Virus record (IMG/VR): IMGVR_UViG_3300007643_000272
Span: 1 to 38,890 of that record
Source: a virus
Lineage: Duplodnaviria > Caudoviricetes
Length of the DNA stretch: 38,890 nt
Strand: one strand, 5' to 3'
This document shows positions 4,842-37,133 of this stretch, piece by piece; position 1 is the stretch's first letter, and the number at the start of each line of letters is the position of its first letter. Under the pieces are notes generated by a model. That model did no database searches and was not told the origin of the DNA. It saw nothing but the letters and a program-made list of their open reading frames with translations. Both the position numbers and the translations under genes were made by a program.

Positions 4842-5437
4842 GCTAAGATGAACCTCAGTTGCATATGGGCGGGAGCTGCGCTCTCAATTAGACAGCGCAG
4901 CGGGTCAAAGATGGGAGCGCAAAGCGGCGTGCAGCCGACTTCAATGCATCCCATGTGCGAATGATCATCGAACGACGGACCATTTATCACGGTGATATCG
5001 AGGCGTCCGCGCGGCTCTTCGCACAGGGCTGTGCAGCCGACTTCAATACAGCCTGCCAGTGAATTTTCGTCAGGTGGCTCTGCGACGGTGATCTCCCAGC
5101 CATCACGCTCGGCGACTGAAACCATCCATTCAGCAGAGCCGTCGCCATTGGCGAGAACCTTTAGACAGAGGCTGTTTCCGTAGGGATCGCACTCGCTCGG
5201 CAGGCCGTATTCTTCCATCCACATATCGCGAGTAGCCGTCGCCGTGGAACAATACATTTCCTCTTCAAGCGCGCATGTCGCTTGGTGAAAATCCGCCCAG
5301 ACTTCGCATACAGAACGCCAAAACTGAGTGATGACAGAATCGGTGCCGTCTGGCAGAACGCGTGGCCAAGCGCGCCCGCGGGGCAGTAGCTGTAAGACCT
5401 GCTTCAGCAAGCTTTCACGATCATGGCACGGTTGCAT
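4838..5437 (-). CDS. baseplate wedge protein, Mu gp48/DUF2313-like
   Basis: LLPRGRAWP, WMEEYGLP and APAH motifs; synteny after the gp47-like gene. Confidence 0.85.
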   Translation of the reverse strand: MQPCHDRESLLKQVLQLLPRGRAWPRVLPDGTDSVITQFWRSVCEVWADFHQATCALEEEMYCSTATATRDMWMEEYGLPSECDPYGNSLCLKVLANGDGSAEWMVSVAERDGWEITVAEPPDENSLAGCIEVGCTALCEEPRGRLDITVINGPSFDDHSHMGCIEVGCTPLCAPIFDPLRCLIESAAPAHMQLRFILA

Positions 5438-26557: not shown

Positions 26558-28786
26558 CTAAGTGCGCGGTGCGTGACCAACGAGCCACTTACGCTTGCCG
26601 CGATATTTGAAAGAATAGTCAATTCCCTTGTGCTCGCAAATATACTCATTGATCGTTTCTACACCTGAGACCTCGTCTACGAAGGTGGTGACGAATGTTG
26701 GCTCTTCCGGCGGTGGAATGTAAATCACACGAGTTCGACCATCTGGATAAGCGCCGCCTGTAAAGGTGGGCGTGGCACCTGAATTGGAAGTGACGTAGAG
26801 ACAAAACTCGCCACCAATGTCGTCGCCGTCGGTGCCCATGTCGTCAGGAATGACAAACAGTGAAGCGCTCGGTGTGAACAGTTGACCGTTTAGCACGAGG
26901 CGTCCGTTGTTCGGCTGAGCGCGCAGATCATAAATCGTGTTGTTGATGTCCTTGCCGTGCATCCTTGAGCCGAGAGACGCGTCGGGCCGAAGCAGTCTGC
27001 GGATTTGGTGGAGCGCCGCGGCCTGGAAGCGACCGCCCTCAAATGACCGTAGAGCCGCCCCTCCTACTTCTTCGCCCCAGTTATGCCGGTTCTCTGGATG
27101 CGAGCCATCGACGGCCGTGTAGCCGGCGCTTGAAGCAACGGCGTGCCGAGGGCCGAGGTCGGCCTGCAAACTCACAATATCGTTCCGGGCCTTTTCGTAG
27201 GATTTCTGACCTGCGTTGGTCCGCAAGCTCTCGTAGCTTACCCACATGCTGTCGGAGTCGCACCAATGCCCCTCGACGCCGTCGAACACGGAAGTGCGGT
27301 TCATAAGTGCCGCGTAAATCTTTTCGCGCATCGACTGGTAGTCTTCTGGCTGCGAGACACCGCCGACCGTCGAAACTAGGTCGTCGTAGCTGAGGCCGAC
27401 ATTTCCGCCGTTTTGGATGTCTGACCAAATGCGGATCTTGCGGAGGCCCGTGAGTTCCATCGTTCGTTCAACTTGGCGGATGAGTTCGTCAAGTAGATGG
27501 TGAATGCCAACTTTTGAACCGGCAGCGGCTGTAACTCCTGCGCCGTTGACAGGGCCGTCGATCGTGTGGACTTCAAACGTTCCGGGCACTGGCGCTGTCG
27601 CCTTGCGGATATCGCCATATACCCACGATGTATTCATCGCATAGTACCAGCCGGTCGGCGACGTGGGAACACCGGTCAGGCCTAGGAGCGTGACCTTCGA
27701 AGCCTTGTTCGTGGTGGTCGCTGCGGCGAGCTTCCGGCAATCGGAAACCGCAATAATTAGCGGATTGCCCGGTGTGATCGAGGTGATCTCCGCCTCGTTT
27801 TCAGCATCGTAAAGGTCGATCGCTTGGCTGCCCTCGGCGACCGTGATCAGTGTGATCCGCCGACCAGTTGCATTATGGCGAGCCTGTGCCTGCCCCAGAT
27901 GGACGCTGTTTAGACCGTTCTTGAATGGCTCGAGGCCCACTGTCACGGGACCAACATCGTCTTGGTCTGGGCGATAGCAGAGGATTGCCGGGCCGGGGTC
28001 TTTACCAACGAAAGTTTGCTTGTATGTCCCGTCGCCCTGATCTTCGATGATCTGATTTTCGTGGCACGGCGTGGTCGTGAAATGCGGTTCGCCGTTCTGC
28101 TTGATGACAAACTCATTCGCCGTCGCATAGACGATAGACTGGCCGATCATCACCGACAATTCTTCTTCGCCTGCTGGCCCATGCCAACGTCCCGGTGCGG
28201 CGTCGGCTATGGTGACCGGTTTGATCGTGCCGAAGCCCCCATCGTCTCTGCGAAGTGATTCCGCATACCAAATCCACAGGCCTTGGCCTGCGCGGGGGGT
28301 GTCTCCGGGAGTTTGGCGATAGTTGCAAATGTACCCGCTGCGGACTTTATCAGCCCCGCCATCGAGACTGCGCAGGTCCATTGATCTGCCCAGCATTCCG
28401 ACCGCGTGCAGGTCGCGGCCAAGCTCGGCTAGGTTATTTCCGGCGGACGGAGGGTTGGAAATCAGACGCTTCAAGTCCTCTGCGCGTGCATTCAGGCGGT
28501 CTACTTCGCGGTTGAGCCCTGGCTCGGTGACGCCGTCTTTGGCACTAGACAAGTGAGTGGTGTCGCGCCAAATTTTGACGTCTACACCAGCGACGCCTGC
28601 TTTAAGCGTGATGACGCCGCCCATCCATGCCTCACCTACCACGTTTGGCGCATGATCGAATTCTTCAATCTTGAGGATTGTTCCGCCGACGTCGACGCGC
28701 AAGTCCTCTTTGTCAAAATACTCCCAGTCAAAATCGAGCGGGCCTGTGCCGACAAATGCTGTGAAGAGTTTCTCAAAATCAGCCAT
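26558..28786 (-). CDS. tail fibre/spike: T7 gp17-like N-terminal anchor + SGNH acetylesterase-like domain
   Basis: FDWEYFDKEDLRVDV..VKIWRDT anchor; GQGLWIW..DDGG..GRW tailspike head motif; MIGQSI and VDGSHP catalytic motifs. Confidence 0.72.
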   Translation of the reverse strand: MADFEKLFTAFVGTGPLDFDWEYFDKEDLRVDVGGTILKIEEFDHAPNVVGEAWMGGVITLKAGVAGVDVKIWRDTTHLSSAKDGVTEPGLNREVDRLNARAEDLKRLISNPPSAGNNLAELGRDLHAVGMLGRSMDLRSLDGGADKVRSGYICNYRQTPGDTPRAGQGLWIWYAESLRRDDGGFGTIKPVTIADAAPGRWHGPAGEEELSVMIGQSIVYATANEFVIKQNGEPHFTTTPCHENQIIEDQGDGTYKQTFVGKDPGPAILCYRPDQDDVGPVTVGLEPFKNGLNSVHLGQAQARHNATGRRITLITVAEGSQAIDLYDAENEAEITSITPGNPLIIAVSDCRKLAAATTTNKASKVTLLGLTGVPTSPTGWYYAMNTSWVYGDIRKATAPVPGTFEVHTIDGPVNGAGVTAAAGSKVGIHHLLDELIRQVERTMELTGLRKIRIWSDIQNGGNVGLSYDDLVSTVGGVSQPEDYQSMREKIYAALMNRTSVFDGVEGHWCDSDSMWVSYESLRTNAGQKSYEKARNDIVSLQADLGPRHAVASSAGYTAVDGSHPENRHNWGEEVGGAALRSFEGGRFQAAALHQIRRLLRPDASLGSRMHGKDINNTIYDLRAQPNNGRLVLNGQLFTPSASLFVIPDDMGTDGDDIGGEFCLYVTSNSGATPTFTGGAYPDGRTRVIYIPPPEEPTFVTTFVDEVSGVETINEYICEHKGIDYSFKYRGKRKWLVGHAPRT

Positions 28787-28875
28787 CAAGGGCTCCGCTG
28801 GATATGACGATGAATAGGGCCGTTCCCGCTAATGCCAGGCAAAGCAGCAACAGCCCCATCTCGATTTGATCTGTG

Positions 28876-29349
28876 TTATTCCGAAGGTGTTTCATTAGCT
28901 TCCAGCGGAGCGCCGGTCGGATCTTCCATCGCGCCTTCAATGACGCCAATCAGAAGGCCTGCTAATGGGTGGGCTTTGAGCGCCGTCTTTGCCGCTCGGA
29001 ATGCAATAGGTGCAACTTTAGGTGCCGCGCGTTTCAGGAAGCCAAGGGAGGCGCGCAGCGTGGACTGTATCGGTGTGGTTTGGTCTTCAGGTACCGGCTC
29101 GGCCTCGACAGCTGTCTGGATACGCACGATAGCGTCGGTGACAGATGGGTCGCCTTCATGATCGGCTGCGGCCTGTGCCAGCGCCTCTTCAAATGTTGAC
29201 GGTTGGTCACTGCCCATGTCGATATCGCCGTGCATGTCACCCTCGACATTGACGTTCTTGGATTTATCGATCGTTTGAGCCACATCGCCGTGTACGTCGC
29301 CGCCGATGCTCATGTTAAATCCGCCGGATGTTTTTTCGTCACCGGTCAT
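28876..29349 (-). CDS. putative amyloid-motif-controlled helical effector
   Basis: N-terminal pseudo-repeats MSIGGDVHGDVAQT and VNVEGDMHGDIDMG; C-terminal amphipathic/hydrophobic helices ending HPLAGLLIGVIEG; ATGA-coupled to the upstream gene. Confidence 0.6.
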   Translation of the reverse strand: MTGDEKTSGGFNMSIGGDVHGDVAQTIDKSKNVNVEGDMHGDIDMGSDQPSTFEEALAQAAADHEGDPSVTDAIVRIQTAVEAEPVPEDQTTPIQSTLRASLGFLKRAAPKVAPIAFRAAKTALKAHPLAGLLIGVIEGAMEDPTGAPLEANETPSE

Positions 29350-29391
29350 GTCTTTTCCTTTTTGATAGTTTGAGCCACATCGCCGTGGACG
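29269..29391. repeat. direct repeat encoding VHGDVAQTI in two adjacent genes
   Basis: Exact 20-mer gtttgagccacatcgccgtg at 29273-29292 and 29368-29387; the flanking mismatches are synonymous third positions. Confidence 0.95.
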
Positions 29392-29741
29392 CTGCCTTGA
29401 ATGTCTGTCCGGTCGCCCGTGTTCACCTGAACGCTGGATTTATTCGCCGCCGCAGCCATGGCATCGAGCCGGCCTTGCATTCCTGACAGGCCTTTGATCA
29501 TCTTGGTCATGGTCGCTATCTGTTGGCGATCCGCCTCTATGCGATCCTTGCGCTCTTGCTCGCGGCGATTGCGTTCTTCACGCCTATACTCGAGCATTTC
29601 TTGACGATCGATGATCATCCGTTCGCGGTCTCTTATCGCGCCTTCAATGTGCGCGCGGACGTCGCCCGTCAAATTGGCTAGATCTTTGCGAATGTCGGTG
29701 ACCTGATCCATGGCCAGTTTCAACATTATTTCGGCGCTCAT
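29346..29741 (-). CDS. coiled-coil adaptor with C-terminal amyloid-like motif
   Basis: E/R-rich long helix followed by SSVQVNTGDRTDIQGSVHGDVAQTI; ATGA overlaps at both ends. Confidence 0.65.
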   Translation of the reverse strand: MSAEIMLKLAMDQVTDIRKDLANLTGDVRAHIEGAIRDRERMIIDRQEMLEYRREERNRREQERKDRIEADRQQIATMTKMIKGLSGMQGRLDAMAAAANKSSVQVNTGDRTDIQGSVHGDVAQTIKKEKT

Positions 29742-30565
29742 AGATCTTTCTCAAGGTCATCGACCATGGCCTGCATCGCTTCGAGTTCGCTCATAACTTT
29801 GTCTTCAACAATTGGCGGTGAGGGGGCAGGTTCAGGAGGGTTATTTGGTGGCGGGACTGGCGTCGGGGCAGGCTGCGATTGGTCGCCCGGCACTGGTTCC
29901 GTTTCGGCCTCTGGCAGAATTTCGTCAGGCTGCAGCGGCGGCACAGGGACCGGCTCGACAACTTCCACAGGCGCTGGCTCGTCGGTCTTGACGGGCAGAG
30001 CCACCTGATCAATATTTTTCTTAGTCTCTCGCACACCGTCAAGCATAGCGAGGACGGCTTCTAACAAATCATACTTCTTTAGCTCTTCGGCCAATCGCGC
30101 ATGCTGCCCTACCTCGCCGAAGTCGGATGGCAAGTTCACAAAGCCGAAAACCATCTTACGATTGTGGTCGTGTTTGTTCAGGCAGAACGTCTCGCAGAAG
30201 CTGTCGCTAAATGGCTTCAGGCATATGCGAGCCGCAACCTTGCTACCGTCAGCGTGCTTAAACTCGAAGGCTCGGAAGTCGCGCGCCTCGAGCGCTTTGC
30301 TTACGGTGTTGCCGAGCTCGCCATAGCGTTTGACATAGCCCGGATGATTTTCGTGCAAGTAATCAGGCAGGACCGTATTGAAGTCCAAACCGATCAGTCT
30401 GTCGCCTGGCTCATGGCCAAGTTTCTCTGCGAGACGCGGATCGAAGCCGATAATCTTGTGGTCGTAACCAATCGCCACTGGGTAGCACGGCATGTTTCCA
30501 AAGACGAACTTCGCGACCTCAAGGGAGTAAGAATCGTCAGGATTTGTCCAAGTCACATTAATCAT
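29738..30565 (-). CDS. FixL-like heme-PAS domain protein with Pro-rich linker
   Basis: LIGLDFNTVLPDYLHENHPGYVKRY aligns without gaps to FixL AIGQNVNILMPEPDRSRHDSYISRY (recalled); also KHADGS and FGFV; no kinase domain. Confidence 0.8.
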   Translation of the reverse strand: MINVTWTNPDDSYSLEVAKFVFGNMPCYPVAIGYDHKIIGFDPRLAEKLGHEPGDRLIGLDFNTVLPDYLHENHPGYVKRYGELGNTVSKALEARDFRAFEFKHADGSKVAARICLKPFSDSFCETFCLNKHDHNRKMVFGFVNLPSDFGEVGQHARLAEELKKYDLLEAVLAMLDGVRETKKNIDQVALPVKTDEPAPVEVVEPVPVPPLQPDEILPEAETEPVPGDQSQPAPTPVPPPNNPPEPAPSPPIVEDKVMSELEAMQAMVDDLEKDL

Positions 30566-30644: not shown

Positions 30645-30941
30645 CTAAGTGATCCGCTCGATCAAAAAGGCCCACACTGGAAGCCAGCCGTGGCCAGCCG
30701 CTATGCCTGCGATAAAGTAAATAGGACGCGCACGGCCTCGAGAGGCGCGCACCTTGTCGGTCTTTGCCGCTTCCTTCTCGACGGAAGCTACACCGAGCGC
30801 GATGGCCTTGGCCTTCGCAGCTTCCGCATTCTCAGTGCGAGCGCGTTCAGCCAACACATCGGCGTCACGCTGAGCCAGCTGACGATAGAGTTTTTGCTCC
30901 TTGCCACCTAATGCGGTCAATTTGCGCGGAGGCTTAGACAT
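30645..30941 (-). CDS. small membrane protein (coiled coil + C-terminal hydrophobic segment)
   Basis: PIYFIAGIAAGHGWLPVWAFLI tail; overlaps the upstream gene by 8 nt. Confidence 0.65.
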   Translation of the reverse strand: MSKPPRKLTALGGKEQKLYRQLAQRDADVLAERARTENAEAAKAKAIALGVASVEKEAAKTDKVRASRGRARPIYFIAGIAAGHGWLPVWAFLIERIT

Positions 30942-31122
30942 TATTTTGATCTACTGAGACCGGTGACGCGGTGTCCTCGGCGGAGCTGTCGTCACGCATT
31001 GAATCTTTTGCAATTCTGGCCGCGTTCTTCGCTTTGCCAAATACTCGCTTAATCATGGCCAGCCGGCGAATGATGACGTCTGCGACCAGGATGGACAGAG
31101 CGATGAATAGAATGAAGTTCAT
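30934..31122 (-). CDS. small membrane protein (N-terminal TM, basic then acidic tail), holin-like candidate
   Basis: MNFILFIALSILVADVII followed by RRLAMIKRVFGKAK; AGGGA RBS. Confidence 0.6.
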   Translation of the reverse strand: MNFILFIALSILVADVIIRRLAMIKRVFGKAKNAARIAKDSMRDDSSAEDTASPVSVDQNNV

Positions 31123-31194
31123 GTTTTTTATCCCTATTGTAGTTTGTATTTTCTTACTGTTGGCACGTCAGAGGATGGTGTAATCGGGCATGGG

Positions 31195-31797
31195 TTAGAT
31201 GCGCTCCAATTCGATAAAGCCCGCATGGCAGCGGACATAATAATTCGTGCTAGGCGTCGTAGACGCACCTGCTACGCCGAGCGTCAGCATGTCTCCGGCT
31301 GGCACCACGTTCTCAGCATTGCCGCTCAAATCAATATCCGTAAGCTGTCGGATAGTGGTTGCATAATTATTGTAACCTGCTGCGCCTGTGGCGGTGACTT
31401 GATCGAGGACATAAGTCGTCGTGCGCGTTGCAGATCCGCCGGACCAAGTCTGCTTTGCTAATACCCATGCCCAAGAGATTGCAGCGTTTGCATTTGAGTT
31501 GGTGTGATGTACGAGCAACCGCTTGACACGAACGTCATATGGCAGCACGACGCCGCCCGTGCTGGTGGCTAGGTTAGTCGCGCCTGCATTACCCAAGTCG
31601 TTCGTGTGGCGGTCATCCAGTCTGCCCCGCACACCCCAGCCGTTGATCTCGCCGGGATCGATCAGGAACTCACCGCCAAGCATGATCGGCGGGTGCCATG
31701 TTGAGCTAACCCCGCTTTCTTGAATGTCTGTGACTGCGGCCTGAGTGGTAGCGACATCGGCTAAGAGACGTTCAGCAAGGGTGGTGTAATCGGTCAT
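31195..31797 (-). CDS. putative fibre tip / receptor-binding protein
   Basis: N-terminal heptad helix followed by a Thr/Gly/Asn-rich beta domain; follows the collar-domain fibre. Confidence 0.5.
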   Translation of the reverse strand: MTDYTTLAERLLADVATTQAAVTDIQESGVSSTWHPPIMLGGEFLIDPGEINGWGVRGRLDDRHTNDLGNAGATNLATSTGGVVLPYDVRVKRLLVHHTNSNANAAISWAWVLAKQTWSGGSATRTTTYVLDQVTATGAAGYNNYATTIRQLTDIDLSGNAENVVPAGDMLTLGVAGASTTPSTNYYVRCHAGFIELERI

Positions 31798-31813
31798 GGA
31801 TTAGACGCGCCAC

Positions 31814-33739
31814 CTACGCTTTATTGCCGTAGACAGTCCATGAGATAGTGCCTGCCCCCGTGCCCACGTCGTCCAAGATTGTGACCGGACAGTTTGTAGC
31901 TGTGCGAGTCCCTTCCTGCGCCGTGCAGCGCTGGCTGGCAGATGTGCCGCTCCCAGTCACGGTCGTATGCAGTGCGTAGCCCGCCTGAAGTGCCACGCCC
32001 CAATCAAGGGTCGCGTTCGGGTTCGCGGCAATGCGCCCATGCCGAACAAAGTCATAGTCAACATCAGGCCCGGCGCTTGCTGCTGGGGCGTCTGTGAATG
32101 TCGCTGTGCCATCGCCGTTCGGCGTCAGGACTCTGGTTGTGTCGGCTTCGTTCGGATTGGTAATCGTTAGGGTGCCCGGCTCAACCATGATCGTCTTGGC
32201 ATAGCTGTCCAGCACCAGCACGAACTGCATGGCGAAGTTATGTGGTCGTGTTTCTGGGTCAGCCGATGACATGCCAACGCCGTTATTGGCCGCGCCTGTA
32301 AGACTTCCACTACCCTTGCCAAAATCGTTGTTACTTTGTCCGTTCCAATCGGATTGAACGTATGTTCTTAACGTCCGCAGCCCATTGACCGCCGTGCCGT
32401 CAGCCTGCGACGCCATGAACGCGGCAGCATTGCCACCAAGGTTACGAATGAACCTACCGTCAAATGTGCTCGGCACCGTCAGATCATCGCCGATCACGAA
32501 GGTCGGGAACATCGCTGCAAACTTCGGATTATCTACGGCACCGTTCGTGAGGCTATAGCCGTTAATTAGAGGCAGCAGCCCCTCAGCCACATAATCAGCA
32601 GGAAACTTAGCCGTTCCGTCAGTTTTTACATTTGGCACTGCCTTGAAAGCGCCAATCTCATTGGCTGCAATCGTGGTGTAGATTTCAACCTTATTCCAGA
32701 AACCAGTCGCAGCATCATCAGCGGCATCGCCAGACGTTGCGCCAAGAGTGAACACATACCAGTCTGCACCGACGCGGCGGGTCTCGCCATCACGGGCCGT
32801 CAGAGCAGTAAGCTCTGCAAGCGTTGCCACAGGTGCGCCGCGCAGTCCTTCAGGCTCATCATTTGGCGTGCCAATGCCAAAGCGAGACAGGCGCGGCTTG
32901 ACCGCAAGCAGTTCGGCCTCGGTGCCGTTTGGCACCTCTGTATCGAGGATGGTTTCGCCGGTGTTGATGACCCAATTAAACCACGTCTGATAATCTGGAT
33001 CAGCAGGATCAGGCTCCGGCGCAGAGAACACAGTGCCCTCTGTGTACTCGGTCGCTTCAAGAAACGTTGCGGCCTGATCGGATGCCTCAACCGTCTGGCT
33101 CGTTGTCCAGTAAAGCGGATCAGTGATGGCCGCAACGTTGGTAAAGCTGTCGTTGTAGTTCGTGCCCTGATAGGTGACGATCACGCCCTGCGATGAGCCG
33201 CCATTGGCAGGTGTTGCATTGATTGCAGACAGGCCGTTCGGGAACTTGCCCGTGTAGTAGAACTTGACCGTTCCCGCCTTGTTGCGGCCAAGACCGATCG
33301 TGCCGTTGAACAGAGCCTTATCCGTAATGATCGTAGCCGTGCCACCCGAGTACTGAACGAGGTTGGCGTCATACACCCAATCGCCGGGCGGGTATGAATT
33401 GCCGTCATTATCGACGAACTCCAGCCCGACATTTGAGCCAGCATTCGTGCCGGCAGAGCGAAGCGTTACCTCGATATAATTCAGAACCAGCGTTTGCGGG
33501 TCTTTAGATCCGAAGTTGAACCAATCGTCATTCGGCACACCGTTTGCAGGGAATGCCGCAGTCGTCGCGGTTCGGCGCGCCCATAGTTCTTCCGTGCTTC
33601 GGATAAATACAGCGCTATCGGCTGGTATAGTTTCAGCCGCCGGAGCCGCGTAATCGTCGAAGTAGAGCAGGCGCACATCCGGCGCATCCGCCTCATCGGG
33701 AACAACAAAAGTCAGTGGGCCTTCATTGATGTCTGGCAT
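31814..33739 (-). CDS. fibre protein with tail-collar-like domain
   Basis: IGAF..LINGYSL..PKFAAMF..DGRFIRN..SQAD..ETRPHNFAMQF collar signature; VATLAELTAL..DG head motif; C-terminal ISWTVYG beta domain. Confidence 0.75.
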   Translation of the reverse strand: MPDINEGPLTFVVPDEADAPDVRLLYFDDYAAPAAETIPADSAVFIRSTEELWARRTATTAAFPANGVPNDDWFNFGSKDPQTLVLNYIEVTLRSAGTNAGSNVGLEFVDNDGNSYPPGDWVYDANLVQYSGGTATIITDKALFNGTIGLGRNKAGTVKFYYTGKFPNGLSAINATPANGGSSQGVIVTYQGTNYNDSFTNVAAITDPLYWTTSQTVEASDQAATFLEATEYTEGTVFSAPEPDPADPDYQTWFNWVINTGETILDTEVPNGTEAELLAVKPRLSRFGIGTPNDEPEGLRGAPVATLAELTALTARDGETRRVGADWYVFTLGATSGDAADDAATGFWNKVEIYTTIAANEIGAFKAVPNVKTDGTAKFPADYVAEGLLPLINGYSLTNGAVDNPKFAAMFPTFVIGDDLTVPSTFDGRFIRNLGGNAAAFMASQADGTAVNGLRTLRTYVQSDWNGQSNNDFGKGSGSLTGAANNGVGMSSADPETRPHNFAMQFVLVLDSYAKTIMVEPGTLTITNPNEADTTRVLTPNGDGTATFTDAPAASAGPDVDYDFVRHGRIAANPNATLDWGVALQAGYALHTTVTGSGTSASQRCTAQEGTRTATNCPVTILDDVGTGAGTISWTVYGNKA

Positions 33740-33748
33740 GACAGTCCC

Positions 33749-34396
33749 CTACGGCCCAGTCTGCGGAGCACGCAGATTGTAAGTAAATTCGTAAGTCGGC
33801 GGATCAATCGCGGCATTTGTGCCGTTTTCGAGATAGATCGTGAGCGTGTCAGCGGCAGTCACGTCACCCCACATCGTCAGACCTTGCAGCGAACTGTCAG
33901 CTACGAGTTCCACGAACATGCCGGGCGTCGCACCCGTAACAGCTACCGGGCGCTCGCGGCGCTGCCCCGCATTTAGCGTGGCTGCATTCCAATTGTGTGT
34001 GCCGATCAAATCAATCAGGCCTAGCTTTGTCTTGATGTTGTTCCGCGAGGTGTCAACATCGAGGACGGCGTTATCAAAGGCATCGCGGAGAACTTGGCTA
34101 CTGATCGCCAACGGCACGCGGTCGCCGTTTGCGGTATAGACAAACACAAAGGCCCGTTCGTCAGGTTTTCCGTTAGGCGTGATGATAACCACGCGCACTT
34201 CGCCCGCAGCGCCCGTGGCGTCCGCCGACGCCACCAATGGCATAAGCGGCGCGCGAGGTACCGGAGCGCCACCGGTATTGACCACATATTCAGTTATGCT
34301 GCCGCTCGCTTCCAGCACATCGTAACGATGGCCGGAAGTGAACGTGGACAGCGCGTCAAACTCTGCGCGCGTGACGCGATGCCAAGAAATAGACAT
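33749..34396 (-). CDS. putative fibre/virion appendage subunit
   Basis: N-terminus similar to 34403-34882; C-terminal VAVTGATPGMFV..VTAADTLTIYLENGT..IDP domain typical of spike termini. Confidence 0.6.
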   Translation of the reverse strand: MSISWHRVTRAEFDALSTFTSGHRYDVLEASGSITEYVVNTGGAPVPRAPLMPLVASADATGAAGEVRVVIITPNGKPDERAFVFVYTANGDRVPLAISSQVLRDAFDNAVLDVDTSRNNIKTKLGLIDLIGTHNWNAATLNAGQRRERPVAVTGATPGMFVELVADSSLQGLTMWGDVTAADTLTIYLENGTNAAIDPPTYEFTYNLRAPQTGP

Positions 34397-34402
34397 GGGG
34401 CG

Positions 34403-34882
34403 CTACCAGGTCTCGGTGCTGTAGCCGACAGTCGCCACCGTAATCGGCGTCGGATCTGTGGTCGTTTGCGCATTGCCGTCGCCGTCAGTCCAAGTAATTT
34501 CCACAAGGAACTCGTTCGCGCCGCCGCCTGCTTTTAGGTCGATGCCCGTAATCGCTGTGTGAGCAACACCAGTCAAGCCAGTGTTCAATTCCTCAAGCGC
34601 GGCCTTCACGTTCGTTGCTGTCATTCCTGACGCAACATTGTCAAAGCTAGTGCCAGCAGCGGTCTGGTCAATGCCTGCAAGCGCAGCGGTGATCGCCGCC
34701 GAAATTGCAGCGGCAGATGCAGCCGATGTTACGGCGTCCAGTTTGCGTGGTGTGCCGCCAGTATCGGTGACATAGACGGCTTCAAGGCCGTCATTTGCGC
34801 CGTTTGACTCAAAGTAAATGTGGCCTGCTGTGGCCGTGCCGGGCACGGCCCCATTGGCTACGCGGTGAAAGTCTAGTGCCAT
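34403..34882 (-). CDS. putative fibre/virion appendage subunit
   Basis: FDNVASGMTATNVKAALEEL trimeric-fibre motif; ends in GYSTETW. Confidence 0.65.
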   Translation of the reverse strand: MALDFHRVANGAVPGTATAGHIYFESNGANDGLEAVYVTDTGGTPRKLDAVTSAASAAAISAAITAALAGIDQTAAGTSFDNVASGMTATNVKAALEELNTGLTGVAHTAITGIDLKAGGGANEFLVEITWTDGDGNAQTTTDPTPITVATVGYSTETW

Positions 34883-34886
34883 GGTT

Positions 34887-35552
34887 TTACCATCCTTCAG
34901 TTAGGTAATTTAGATCAGCTGCGGTATCTGTTCCACCTGAACCACCAACGTTCACTGGAAACAATTTCCCAAATCGGTAGTGGTAAAGATCGTTGCGGGC
35001 CTCGTCGGCCTCGGAATGAATAAGCAAATAGCTCTTGCCGTCTTCCAGCGTCAGCGTACCTGCTGTGACCGCTGCTGCGGCGTCGGCGAATGTCCCAAAG
35101 GCGGGTATCTCGGTCGACGGCACGTCAGGGACAGCGACAGAGATCGCAAAATCCCACTGACCACCATTGGTCAGATACACACCGCGAGGATATTGCGGGT
35201 TTTCTGCGTCGCCGGTGCCAATATCGTCGGCTGTCAACCAGGTCGAAAAGGTCGTCGTCGCGTCGGCCTCTGCCGGGATGGCAGGCAGACCAGCATAGGT
35301 ATCGGCAAACGGCCGCAGCATCTGACCGGTGACGTCCAGATTATCTATGTCATTGCGCAGCTGGCCAAGGGCGATCGCAAGCGCTGCCTTTTCCGCCGCG
35401 CTGGTGTGGATATCGTCGTCGCTGGTATGATCCGCCGGGCCGACATTGTCCCAGCCATACACGCCGTCAGATATCACCCTAGCCACGACGAAGTCGCCGA
35501 AGCGATCGCCTTCCTGCAGGCCCAGCTGTTTTAAGGACGTTGCCTTAACCAT
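34887..35552 (-). CDS. putative fibre/virion appendage subunit
   Basis: Acidic; HTSDDDIHTSAAEK fibre motif, ADTYAGLP..GVY..GGQW; ends in NYLTEGW. Confidence 0.6.
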   Translation of the reverse strand: MVKATSLKQLGLQEGDRFGDFVVARVISDGVYGWDNVGPADHTSDDDIHTSAAEKAALAIALGQLRNDIDNLDVTGQMLRPFADTYAGLPAIPAEADATTTFSTWLTADDIGTGDAENPQYPRGVYLTNGGQWDFAISVAVPDVPSTEIPAFGTFADAAAAVTAGTLTLEDGKSYLLIHSEADEARNDLYHYRFGKLFPVNVGGSGGTDTAADLNYLTEGW

Positions 35553-35555
35553 AAC

Positions 35556-36110
35556 CTAAGCCGCTGTAGACCAGTAAGCGGCCATCTGGCCAGCGTCAGC
35601 GCCGAGCGCGATATGCTTGCCGCGAAGGCTCTCTGTCGGATCGTTCAGCACAATGGCCTCGGTGCCAGAGCGCACGGTCGTCGGATCCGGCAGATCGGCA
35701 TACGTGTTGTAGCCGAGCGCTTTGATGTCGCCTTCCACCCAGTCCGTCCCATTGTAGCGATCGGTGCGGTCGATGTCGTCAATGTAGACGCGCTGGCCGG
35801 TCTCGACTTCCGTCAGGGCGTCGCGCGCAGCCACATTGGCCTCGCTAACTTCATAGTTCTCGACCTCATAAACACCGTCGTTGACGACATAGACCAGACC
35901 ATTGCTTGAAGTCTTTACCCGATAGCCGTCTGATTTGGTCGCCACGTCGGGGCGGTCTGCTTTCGTTGCCACGGTGTCGTGCAGGTCGGTTGCAACCGCA
36001 GCCGGAGCAAAACCATAGTGCATATCAGCGAAGACATGGACCACCACGTCGCCGTTGATGGTGTCACCGATTGCGCCGCCTGGCGCATTGCGAGATGCGA
36101 GAATTGCCAT
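35556..36110 (-). CDS. putative fibre/virion appendage subunit
   Basis: ANVAARDAL..GQRVYI..RYNGTDW small fibre domains; C-terminal domain paralogous to 36130-36570; ATG at 36110. Confidence 0.6.
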   Translation of the reverse strand: MAILASRNAPGGAIGDTINGDVVVHVFADMHYGFAPAAVATDLHDTVATKADRPDVATKSDGYRVKTSSNGLVYVVNDGVYEVENYEVSEANVAARDALTEVETGQRVYIDDIDRTDRYNGTDWVEGDIKALGYNTYADLPDPTTVRSGTEAIVLNDPTESLRGKHIALGADAGQMAAYWSTAA

Positions 36111-36129
36111 AATAAATTGCCCTGTTGGT

Positions 36130-36570
36130 TTAAGATTGCAGGCGGTAGTAAACCGCCATGGAGCCCTTCGGCGCACCGAGCGCCAAGTGCTGACCGGTCA
36201 GCGCGCCATCATCGACAACGGTGACCAGAGTGCCGACCTCAATCGTCGCCGGATTGGGCGCGTCTTGCAGGCGGTTATAGACATGATCGGAGGATGGCAC
36301 CGATGCTTCAATTAAATTTTTAGCGGTCAGCGCGGCATGCGTGGTGCCTGTGTTGAGCGTGATTGGCCCGGCCGTGGTGTTTTGAAACCGGATCAGCGTA
36401 TCGGATGCCATTGTCCATTCACCAACGCCGACGACTGTGGTCGCGTCGCCGACCGGGGTGCGGCCCTTGAGGTCTGCAACACCTGTTCGCGCAACCGCAT
36501 CGACGGTACCGCCTCCGCCGGGTGCGGAGGCCCCGCCGGATGTCCAGAAAGGATGGCGACGGTTAAGCAT
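36130..36570 (-). CDS. putative virion appendage subunit
   Basis: GGAG RBS; DAVAR motif; C-terminal domain shared with the downstream gene. Confidence 0.55.
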   Translation of the reverse strand: MLNRRHPFWTSGGASAPGGGGTVDAVARTGVADLKGRTPVGDATTVVGVGEWTMASDTLIRFQNTTAGPITLNTGTTHAALTAKNLIEASVPSSDHVYNRLQDAPNPATIEVGTLVTVVDDGALTGQHLALGAPKGSMAVYYRLQS

Positions 36571-36572
36571 GG

Positions 36573-37133
36573 CTAGGCTCCTGTTTTGTCCGCAGATGCC
36601 TCGCTGTCCGAAGTGCTTTGATCGCCGCTGGTTTCTGTCGGCGCATCGGTGGCGGGGGCTGGTGTTTCCGTTTCAGTTTCAGCGCTTGCTGCGGCCTCGC
36701 CTGCTGCAGCCGGGGCCTCGTCTGGACCGGCGTCGGCTTCGGGCTCTTCGTTCTGAACTTCGACGATATCGAGGTGACCACCTTCGGCGACGCCGGCGAA
36801 CGGGCAAACAGCGGTCACCGCATTATCACGGTACTCCATCGGCGTGACGGTGATCTCAGCGCCGCCGGCACTGGCGTCGCGGTGTTTGGAAACGCCGCCT
36901 AGCACTTCGAGATTGTCGTGGAAGTCGATAGCAACAAAGCAGAAGAGTCCGGTCGTGCCTGCCAGATAAGCGGCAAGGTCAAGCGACGCTATCTTGCCGT
37001 TCGTGGCGGCATCGGCAGGCGTCCACCGTGTAACTAGACCCGGCTCAAGACCAAGTTGACGCTGGCCACCGAGAGGCTCCTGCATCCATGCGTTAATGGC
37101 TTGCGAAATTTGAGCGATGATATCTTCGGACAT
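36573..37133 (-). CDS. hypothetical protein with acidic low-complexity tail; first gene of the late block
   Basis: Follows the terminator; stop lies 2 nt from the next start. Confidence 0.6.
   Translation of the reverse strand: MSEDIIAQISQAINAWMQEPLGGQRQLGLEPGLVTRWTPADAATNGKIASLDLAAYLAGTTGLFCFVAIDFHDNLEVLGGVSKHRDASAGGAEITVTPMEYRDNAVTAVCPFAGVAEGGHLDIVEVQNEEPEADAGPDEAPAAAGEAAASAETETETPAPATDAPTETSGDQSTSDSEASADKTGA

Follow-up and report, generated by a model that had tools for sequence, protein, structure and literature searches.

Organization of the locus

The provirus record IMGVR_UViG_3300007643_000272 of IMG/VR (completeness 57%) was analysed over positions 1–38,890, a stretch of 38,890 nucleotides referred to here as the window. 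Its minus strand carries lambda-like head genes and Mu-like tail genes, and the nearest annotated terminases are at most 41% identical to the terminase of the provirus. Upstream of the head genes, on the same strand and amid unannotated β-rich genes, lies a cassette of three genes coding for a PAS protein of 275 residues (29738–30565), a protein of 131 residues (29346–29741) and a protein of 157 residues (28876–29349), the last two being designated adaptor and effector after the roles proposed for them. ATGA overlaps join the PAS gene to the adaptor gene and the adaptor gene to the effector gene, which has an AAGGA ribosome-binding-like site. The GC content of the cassette (0.54–0.57) and its GC content at third codon positions (0.56–0.63) are like those of the remaining genes of the window. 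The adaptor ends, and the effector begins, with a common tag of the Gly/Asp/Val type, and the cassette may encode a switch that works by amyloid-like stacking of the tag. An earlier note on this DNA, in which the PAS gene is not mentioned, had already read the tag as an amyloid motif, a reading that as a whole is partly supported by the present analysis.

The shared tag

In the adaptor, the tag is present as a single copy (R0; residues 104–126, 29364–29432) composed of VQVNTGD (residues 104–110) and TDIQGSVHGDVAQTI (residues 112–126, 29364–29408), with the stop codon following five residues later. The effector carries two pseudo-repeats: R1, MSIGGDVHGDVAQTI (residues 13–27, 29269–29313), lies in a conserved block that reaches over residues 9–30, and R2, VNVEGDMHGDIDMG (residues 33–46, 29212–29253), follows it. 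All of the tag peptides quoted in the earlier note are present at the places given there, and its division of the effector tag into two pseudo-repeats holds, except that the effector starts at Met1 and not at Met13 as quoted (homologs have Leu or Ile at position 13).

Alignment of the last 40 residues of the adaptor with the first 50 of the effector gives a score of 65, which is reached by none of 10,000 shuffles (mean 21.9). This junction ranks first among 44 adjacent-gene junctions (next score 27), and the two ends also rank first among 1,980 C-end/N-end pairs drawn from 45 hand-picked minus-strand genes (next score 43). R1 and R2 score 46 against each other, again matched by none of 10,000 shuffles. 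At the DNA level, the exact 20-mer reported earlier was confirmed (29273–29292 in the effector, 29368–29387 in the adaptor) and is the sole exact direct repeat of at least 18 nucleotides in the window. Of 13 aligned codons, 11 specify the same residue, eight being identical and three synonymous. Since the eight identical codons out of 11 exceed the 4.5 expected from independent choice (P ∼0.03), the two tags share DNA ancestry. The earlier proposal of a duplication followed by protein-level selection agrees with the three synonymous differences, but the eight identical codons fit recent copying equally well. Prediction of a complex of three adaptor tags and three effector tags scored 0.02 and gave no verdict. 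The GDxHG within the tag resembles a metallophosphoesterase motif (several such proteins are among the loci matching the R2-derived pattern described below); this assignment was rejected, as no such domain follows the tag.

The effector and its family

A word-indexed search with the effector returned only the effector itself. A search with phmmer against 1.84 billion representatives gave five relatives (E values of 2e-13 to 1e-6) and a profile search added three weaker ones (4e-4 to 7e-3), all of them rare and without names. The invariant columns of the family are concentrated in the tag region, with 16 of 17 falling within residues 1–38. Across the five homologs, identity to the effector is 66% in the tag (190 position comparisons) and 18% in the helical domain (455), a contrast that is inflated because it was mainly the tag that led to the homologs. 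Each Gly-Asp keeps its Asp in all members. Only the effector of the window has His in R1, where the other five proteins carry L, S, K, K and S, and the His of R2 is found in four of six members; a pH-sensing or metal-sensing stack of His and Asp residues, as envisaged in the earlier note, is therefore not a family feature. P0010 shares its C-terminal helices with P0004 and has a different, Gly/Asn/Gln-rich N-terminus, so that tags look exchangeable on the helical domain.

An AlphaFold2 model of the effector (nine alignment rows; mean predicted local distance difference test score, pLDDT, of 64) contains five helices spanning residues 52–142 (28924–29196), for which no family or fold could be assigned. 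The tag is predicted to be unstructured in the monomer, with pLDDT below 50 at residues 1–26 and 31–49. The helix at residues 123–141 is a Gly/Pro/Ala segment of moderate hydrophobicity (mean hydropathy 1.27), and in all nine family members the 19-mer of highest hydropathy is located close to the C-terminus.

The effector received no Pfam, PHROG, NCBIfam, PADLOC or fold assignment, PADLOC giving a weak coil match only. Neither adaptor nor effector matched a Pfam family at an E value of 0.05, nor did the effector at 1, in searches by which short motifs, such as those of the HET-s prion domain or RHIM, are easily missed. The best structural matches to the effector were designed bundles (Z score 8.9, root-mean-square deviation 3.7, 92 aligned residues); fold searches gave no family and leave a Bell fold possible. 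In a comparison with one Bell-like protein, the tag alone matched. Unnamed proteins of 132–158 residues from Cyanobacteriota and Chloroflexota score 0.90–0.91 to the effector in the Atlas, which is a lead only. TCAD2 (PF19971) appears there at rank 4 (score 0.90) without a Pfam match; its profile had no match in the window, and none in 14 control genomes either.

The adaptor and the PAS protein

The adaptor has a helical-looking body in front of its tag, Glu/Arg-rich at residues 37–75. A heptad pattern at residues 72–100 was equalled by 36 of 5,000 shuffles; that at residues 7–36 was not significant (472 of 5,000). No match to a STAND family was found among 32 window proteins scanned.

The PAS protein comprises a PAS domain (residues ∼12–144), a Pro-rich linker (23 prolines in residues 190–252) and an acidic, helix-like C-terminal tail, and has no output domain. 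The best PDB sequence matches to residues 1–150 are the haem domains of DosP (E value 0.0016) and FixL (0.035). The Atlas assigns PAS with a feature score of 0.97, its structure rows likewise naming PAS, and the model agrees with this fold. His74 (codon 30344–30346) aligns with His77 of DosP, which is the proximal haem ligand (PMC4263535), and haem binding in the DosP/FixL PAS cluster is determined primarily by a His on the F helix (PMC10468136). All seven genome matches from 201 sampled genomes have His at this position. A Foldseek search with the PAS model placed the DosP and FixL haem domains on top (probability 1.0, E values of 0.001–0.002), a result that is biased and not independent, since FixL-like rows were used in building the model. 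The phage protein thus resembles DosP and FixL in its PAS domain, where both the proximal His and the Tyr after it are present, but lacks their phosphodiesterase or kinase output, has insertions and a Pro-rich tail instead, and does not retain the distal Met95 of DosP. A haem-PAS pattern search yielded one ordinary kinase. From these sequence comparisons, we infer that the PAS domain may bind haem and read the oxygen or redox state.

The last 15 residues of the PAS protein resemble residues 7–21 of the adaptor; both segments end in KDL and their DNA is 72% identical over 25 nucleotides (29679–29703 and 29741–29765). This likeness could possibly represent a second, helical docking tag. A sigma-70-like site matching at 10 of 12 positions (29725–29754, minus strand) spans the same PAS/adaptor junction; it could drive the effector only and may be due to chance. 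A scan for promoters and terminators was uninformative (6 versus 2.9 ± 1.9; 9 versus 7.3 ± 2.7).

Searches for related loci

Candidate stretches found with the effector family alignment included no family member in viral contigs (0 of 78) or in metagenomes (0 of 196), and the three of 73 picked out in genomes were all spurious (secretin-like or haemagglutinin-like by eye). The family profile was likewise without a match in 401 genomes of one sampled phylum. A first tag pattern gave no loci, and another gave 38 loci with no effector family member by eye. A pattern derived from R2 gave 137 loci, 17 viral ones and, in 26 of 64 parts of the collection, 120 metagenomic ones, with a best effector-profile E value of 0.012 and no family member. 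A doubled-tag pattern, covering 35 of 64 parts, gave 120 loci, nine of which passed a position filter; none was convincing and none matched the effector or PAS profile. Searches of plasmids and phages with tblastn gave nothing real, a Polaromonas match being rejected as not a gene, and no viral relatives were found for the PAS protein or for its 743-residue neighbour. The private His common to the adaptor and R1 is compatible with co-evolution of the two tags and with recent copying alike.

Most of the 137 loci matching the R2-derived pattern were in the wrong frame or unrelated, and several encode tandem GDVHG repeat proteins. Among them are small proteins made up of four-residue repeats of the GDVH/GNVG type (L047, L049, L051, L085, L090 and L180), several on viral contigs; these are probably β-solenoids. 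Five loci were examined in detail, two of which are ordinary-polarity pairs of a small protein and a protein like a NOD-like receptor (NLR). In L154 (1–626), the C-terminus of the small protein matches the N-terminus of the next gene product at 15 of 21 residues, and that product has a P-loop with a weak AAA_16 match (E value 0.003). In L134 (1–2240), the gene for a small protein that starts in a Bell-like manner (by eye) and carries the motif C-terminally lies upstream of a NACHT gene (E value 1e-9). The letters of these motifs match the tag by construction of the pattern; their terminal position and their partners were not selected for in this way. The occurrence of the same tag letters in Bell-like/NLR-like pairs lends support to an amyloid-signalling reading. 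The two motifs share an NxxGDxHGD core and may belong to a described or an undescribed BASS family.

Comparison with known amyloid signalling systems

BASS motifs are ∼25 residues long and enriched in Gln, Asn, Gly, Val and Ile; the genes that carry them often overlap, and single and double repeats occur (10.1101/2020.01.06.895854). The length and composition of the tag and the short gene spacing fit this description. As in the Bell/NLR pairs BASS1–10 (Dyrka et al., 10.1101/2020.01.06.895854), adjacent collinear genes share a junction motif of ∼25 residues rich in Gly, Asn, Gln, Val and Ile, located at the C-terminus of the upstream protein and the N-terminus of the downstream one, with single versus double repeats and a small five-helix partner. 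In those pairs, however, the small helical effector is encoded upstream, with its motif at the C-terminus and a hydrophobic helix at the N-terminus, the NLR being encoded downstream. In the phage cassette, the small helical protein lies downstream, its motif is N-terminal (residues 9–46) and its hydrophobic helices are C-terminal (maximum at residues 123–141). In place of an NB-ARC or NACHT NLR with an N-terminal motif, there are a PAS protein and a 131-residue partner with the motif at its C-terminus, all on a provirus. As two defining features of Bell/NLR pairs are thus absent, the cassette is not counted among them. A mechanism like that of a Bell/NLR pair is nevertheless possible, and the tag may belong to an already described BASS family.

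For Bab/Agp, a defence pair carried by a prophage, amyloid signalling has been proven (10.1101/2024.11.07.622273). This BASS11 pair (Ibarlosa et al., 10.1101/2024.11.07.622273) is likewise adjacent and carried by a prophage, with a common motif, a non-NLR trigger and a small helical executor. It differs in that the trigger is a TPR-GreA/B-PIN protein of 1,094 residues with an N-terminal motif, the motif of Bab is C-terminal and signalling was demonstrated experimentally, whereas the phage cassette is known from its sequence. In NWD2/HET-S of Podospora anserina, an NLR carries one repeat at its N-terminus and the effector two at its C-terminus (PMC7889193). The earlier note had drawn this parallel, and the counts bear it out, with one repeat in the presumed trigger and two pseudo-repeats in the effector. 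The remaining features differ: the Podospora repeats are of 21 residues with a flexible loop, R0 being on a NACHT-WD NLR and R1–R2 being C-terminal to HeLo, whereas the phage tag is of ∼15–20 residues, has the reversed placement on a protein that is no NLR and shows no HET-s family match. No paper on this arrangement was found in the literature searched, outside which most subscription journals lie, and the available passages of Kaur et al. (PMC7159879, PMC8195603) contain nothing on it.

Proposed mechanism and alternatives

The tag is non-random, lies at the ends of a translationally coupled pair and is conserved better than any other part of the effector family, which argues for an amyloid-type function. 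By analogy with bacterial and fungal cell-death amyloid switches, it likely lets adaptor and effector stack, in reversed orientation. We favour a sensor–adaptor–effector switch in which the common tag stacks in an amyloid-like manner and likely turns on a membrane-acting helical domain, and put its probability at roughly 45%. Such a model starts from three ATGA-overlapped genes, a PAS-type domain with the His of DosP and FixL, a common tag and the retention of that tag in the effector family. The haem-PAS domain would read oxygen or redox state and, by way of the flexible linker and the acidic tail, act on the helical body of the adaptor. Clustering of the adaptor would gather its C-terminal tags and, as in NWD2/HET-S and Agp/Bab, nucleate a β-stack (β-solenoid). 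The stack could then recruit and refold the N-terminal repeats of the effector, freeing its C-terminal hydrophobic helices in a mirror image of HeLo/Bell. In the weakest step, membrane damage or depolarization would end or arrest the cell, perhaps as an abortive defence of the lysogen or a control of the late lytic phase. What triggers the switch would probably be a metabolic signal and not an immune receptor.

Several observations weigh against this switch. The motif is C-terminal in the presumed trigger and N-terminal in the small helical protein, a polarity reversed with respect to NWD2/HET-S, the BASS pairs and Bab/Agp. The single tag copy sits on a helical-looking protein without a nucleotide-binding domain, for which protein searches and plasmid/phage tblastn searches found no homolog. 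The pairing of adaptor and effector was seen at one locus only, the single effector neighbourhood covered, and the R0/R1–R2 layout is not fixed in the family, R2 being shortened in P0003 and P0007 (two of six members). The hydropathy of the C-terminal helix is just moderate (0.89–1.84 across nine proteins). On the sensor side, searches with the PAS protein gave no close homolog, its model is weak (pLDDT 57), its PAS domain scores below the curated cut-offs of Pfam and NCBIfam, and the register of the distal Arg (Arg97 in DosP) differs between alignments (Arg98 versus Arg95). The similarity of the PAS tail to the adaptor is reached by 150 of 10,000 shuffles and is not significant over 44 junctions, so that gene overlap is all that suggests a functional link between these two proteins. 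The surroundings consist of β-rich, virion-like genes on the morphogenesis strand, unlike a typical defence island, and the M15 endolysin gene (2452–2934) is ∼26 kb away; a direct part in the lysis cassette was ruled out on this ground. The two biases noted above, in tag conservation and in the Foldseek result, count in the same direction, as does the closeness of the tag DNA copies discussed next.

One alternative is a local copying accident, in which the upstream gene acquired its tail through duplication of the 5' end of the effector gene and the effector tag works alone or with another partner. The two tags are closer in DNA (a run of 20 nucleotides and eight of 11 identical codons, P 0.03) than those of the L154 control (a run of nine nucleotides and ten of 15), as expected of recent copying; six identical codons stand in a row (P 0.005, computed after the run was seen), the adaptor has the His otherwise found only in R1 of the window's own effector, and no second locus with the pairing was seen. 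An accident would nonetheless leave unaccounted for three synonymous changes within 11 retained residues, in frame and five residues before a stop codon, and the extra strand-turn unit VQVNTGD upstream in the adaptor, which was not copied from the effector. Private residues are, moreover, also expected of co-evolving or converted partners, and we regard this explanation as improbable. Less so, but still rather unlikely, is finite docking, by which the tags would complete a short β-helix or sheet that clips adaptor and effector into a fixed complex, like one sensor–coil–helix protein in three pieces. Tail-to-head order and ATGA overlaps are the expected look of a split protein, GDVHG-type repeats occur in tandem in several β-solenoid-looking phage proteins (e.g. 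L047, L049, L051, L090 and L180), and the tag weakly matches baseplate-hub gp5 proteins of cyanophages (E values of 0.06–0.6), the C-terminus of which is a triple β-helix. With one or two rungs per chain the interface would be small, though, and in composition and in lying at the protein ends the tags are like self-templating motifs already described, the same letters recurring in the Bell-like/NLR-like pairs.

Those pairs are also the starting point for a counter-defence decoy, in which the phage tags would cross-seed and jam a Bell/NLR amyloid switch of the host, as stated for viral RHIM proteins in animals (10.1101/2024.11.07.622273). The tag core does resemble the motifs of the cellular pairs L134 and L154, but this likeness came from a pattern built on the tag itself; a decoy could do without a matched pair and without a PAS sensor, and the idea appears very unlikely. 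Marginally less probable still is a virion role, with the tags splicing subunits of a PAS-bearing fibre or appendage. It draws on the flanking β-rich proteins of 641 and 743 residues, which look like fibres or decoration proteins by eye and have no family match, and is opposed by the short, predicted or apparently helical nature of both tagged proteins, by a haem-type PAS domain that points to a cytoplasmic role and by the lack of PHROG or viral fold matches.

In its fullest form, the amyloid-like switch becomes a reversed-polarity device in which a haem-PAS oxygen/redox sensor uses a coiled-coil adaptor to nucleate the amyloid and sets off a membrane effector of a new, mirror-image type, tying cell fate to host metabolism. 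Taken together, this chain of steps is doubtful, at a level only slightly above that given to finite docking. In the published amyloid pairs covered here, the motif is at the N-terminus of the trigger and the C-terminus of the executor, and the trigger senses non-self. If the fuller form were true, the opposite polarity would be workable, the input would be metabolic (oxygen or redox), the executor domain would be new, the switch would operate among the phage's own genes, and there would be one possible output for PAS proteins that lack an output domain. The parts are tiny (tags of 33 and 41 residues in proteins of 131 and 157 residues), so that decisive tests of the kind used for Bab/Agp are directly applicable.

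Genomic context

Two small genes upstream of the cassette (30645–31122, minus strand) encode proteins of 62 residues (hydropathy 2.21) and 98 residues (1.59) with one hydrophobic segment each, which might serve the module as membrane anchors. A direct repeat of 33 nucleotides (88% identity; 31172–31204 and 31778–31810), located just upstream of the cassette, reproduces the start of a 200-residue gene (31195–31797), together with the end of the preceding gene, at that gene's own end; it may be a trace of module insertion or duplication.

Between an HD phosphatase and the head genes, the regions 31195–37133 and 26558–28789 encode ∼8 β-rich, Gly/Ala/Thr-rich proteins without a family match, a possible second virion appendage gene set outside the tail operon. 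The start of the 743-residue protein, which has no database match, looks like a tail-fibre attachment domain. Elsewhere in the window, an exact repeat of 16 nucleotides (303–318 and 1470–1485) lies near the 5' ends of the consecutive minus-strand open reading frames 1–408 and 418–1545 and could possibly be a shared regulatory site or a duplicated gene start. In the Mu gp48-like baseplate gene, an internal repeat (4929–4945 and 5031–5047) encodes a Cys-rich peptide twice.
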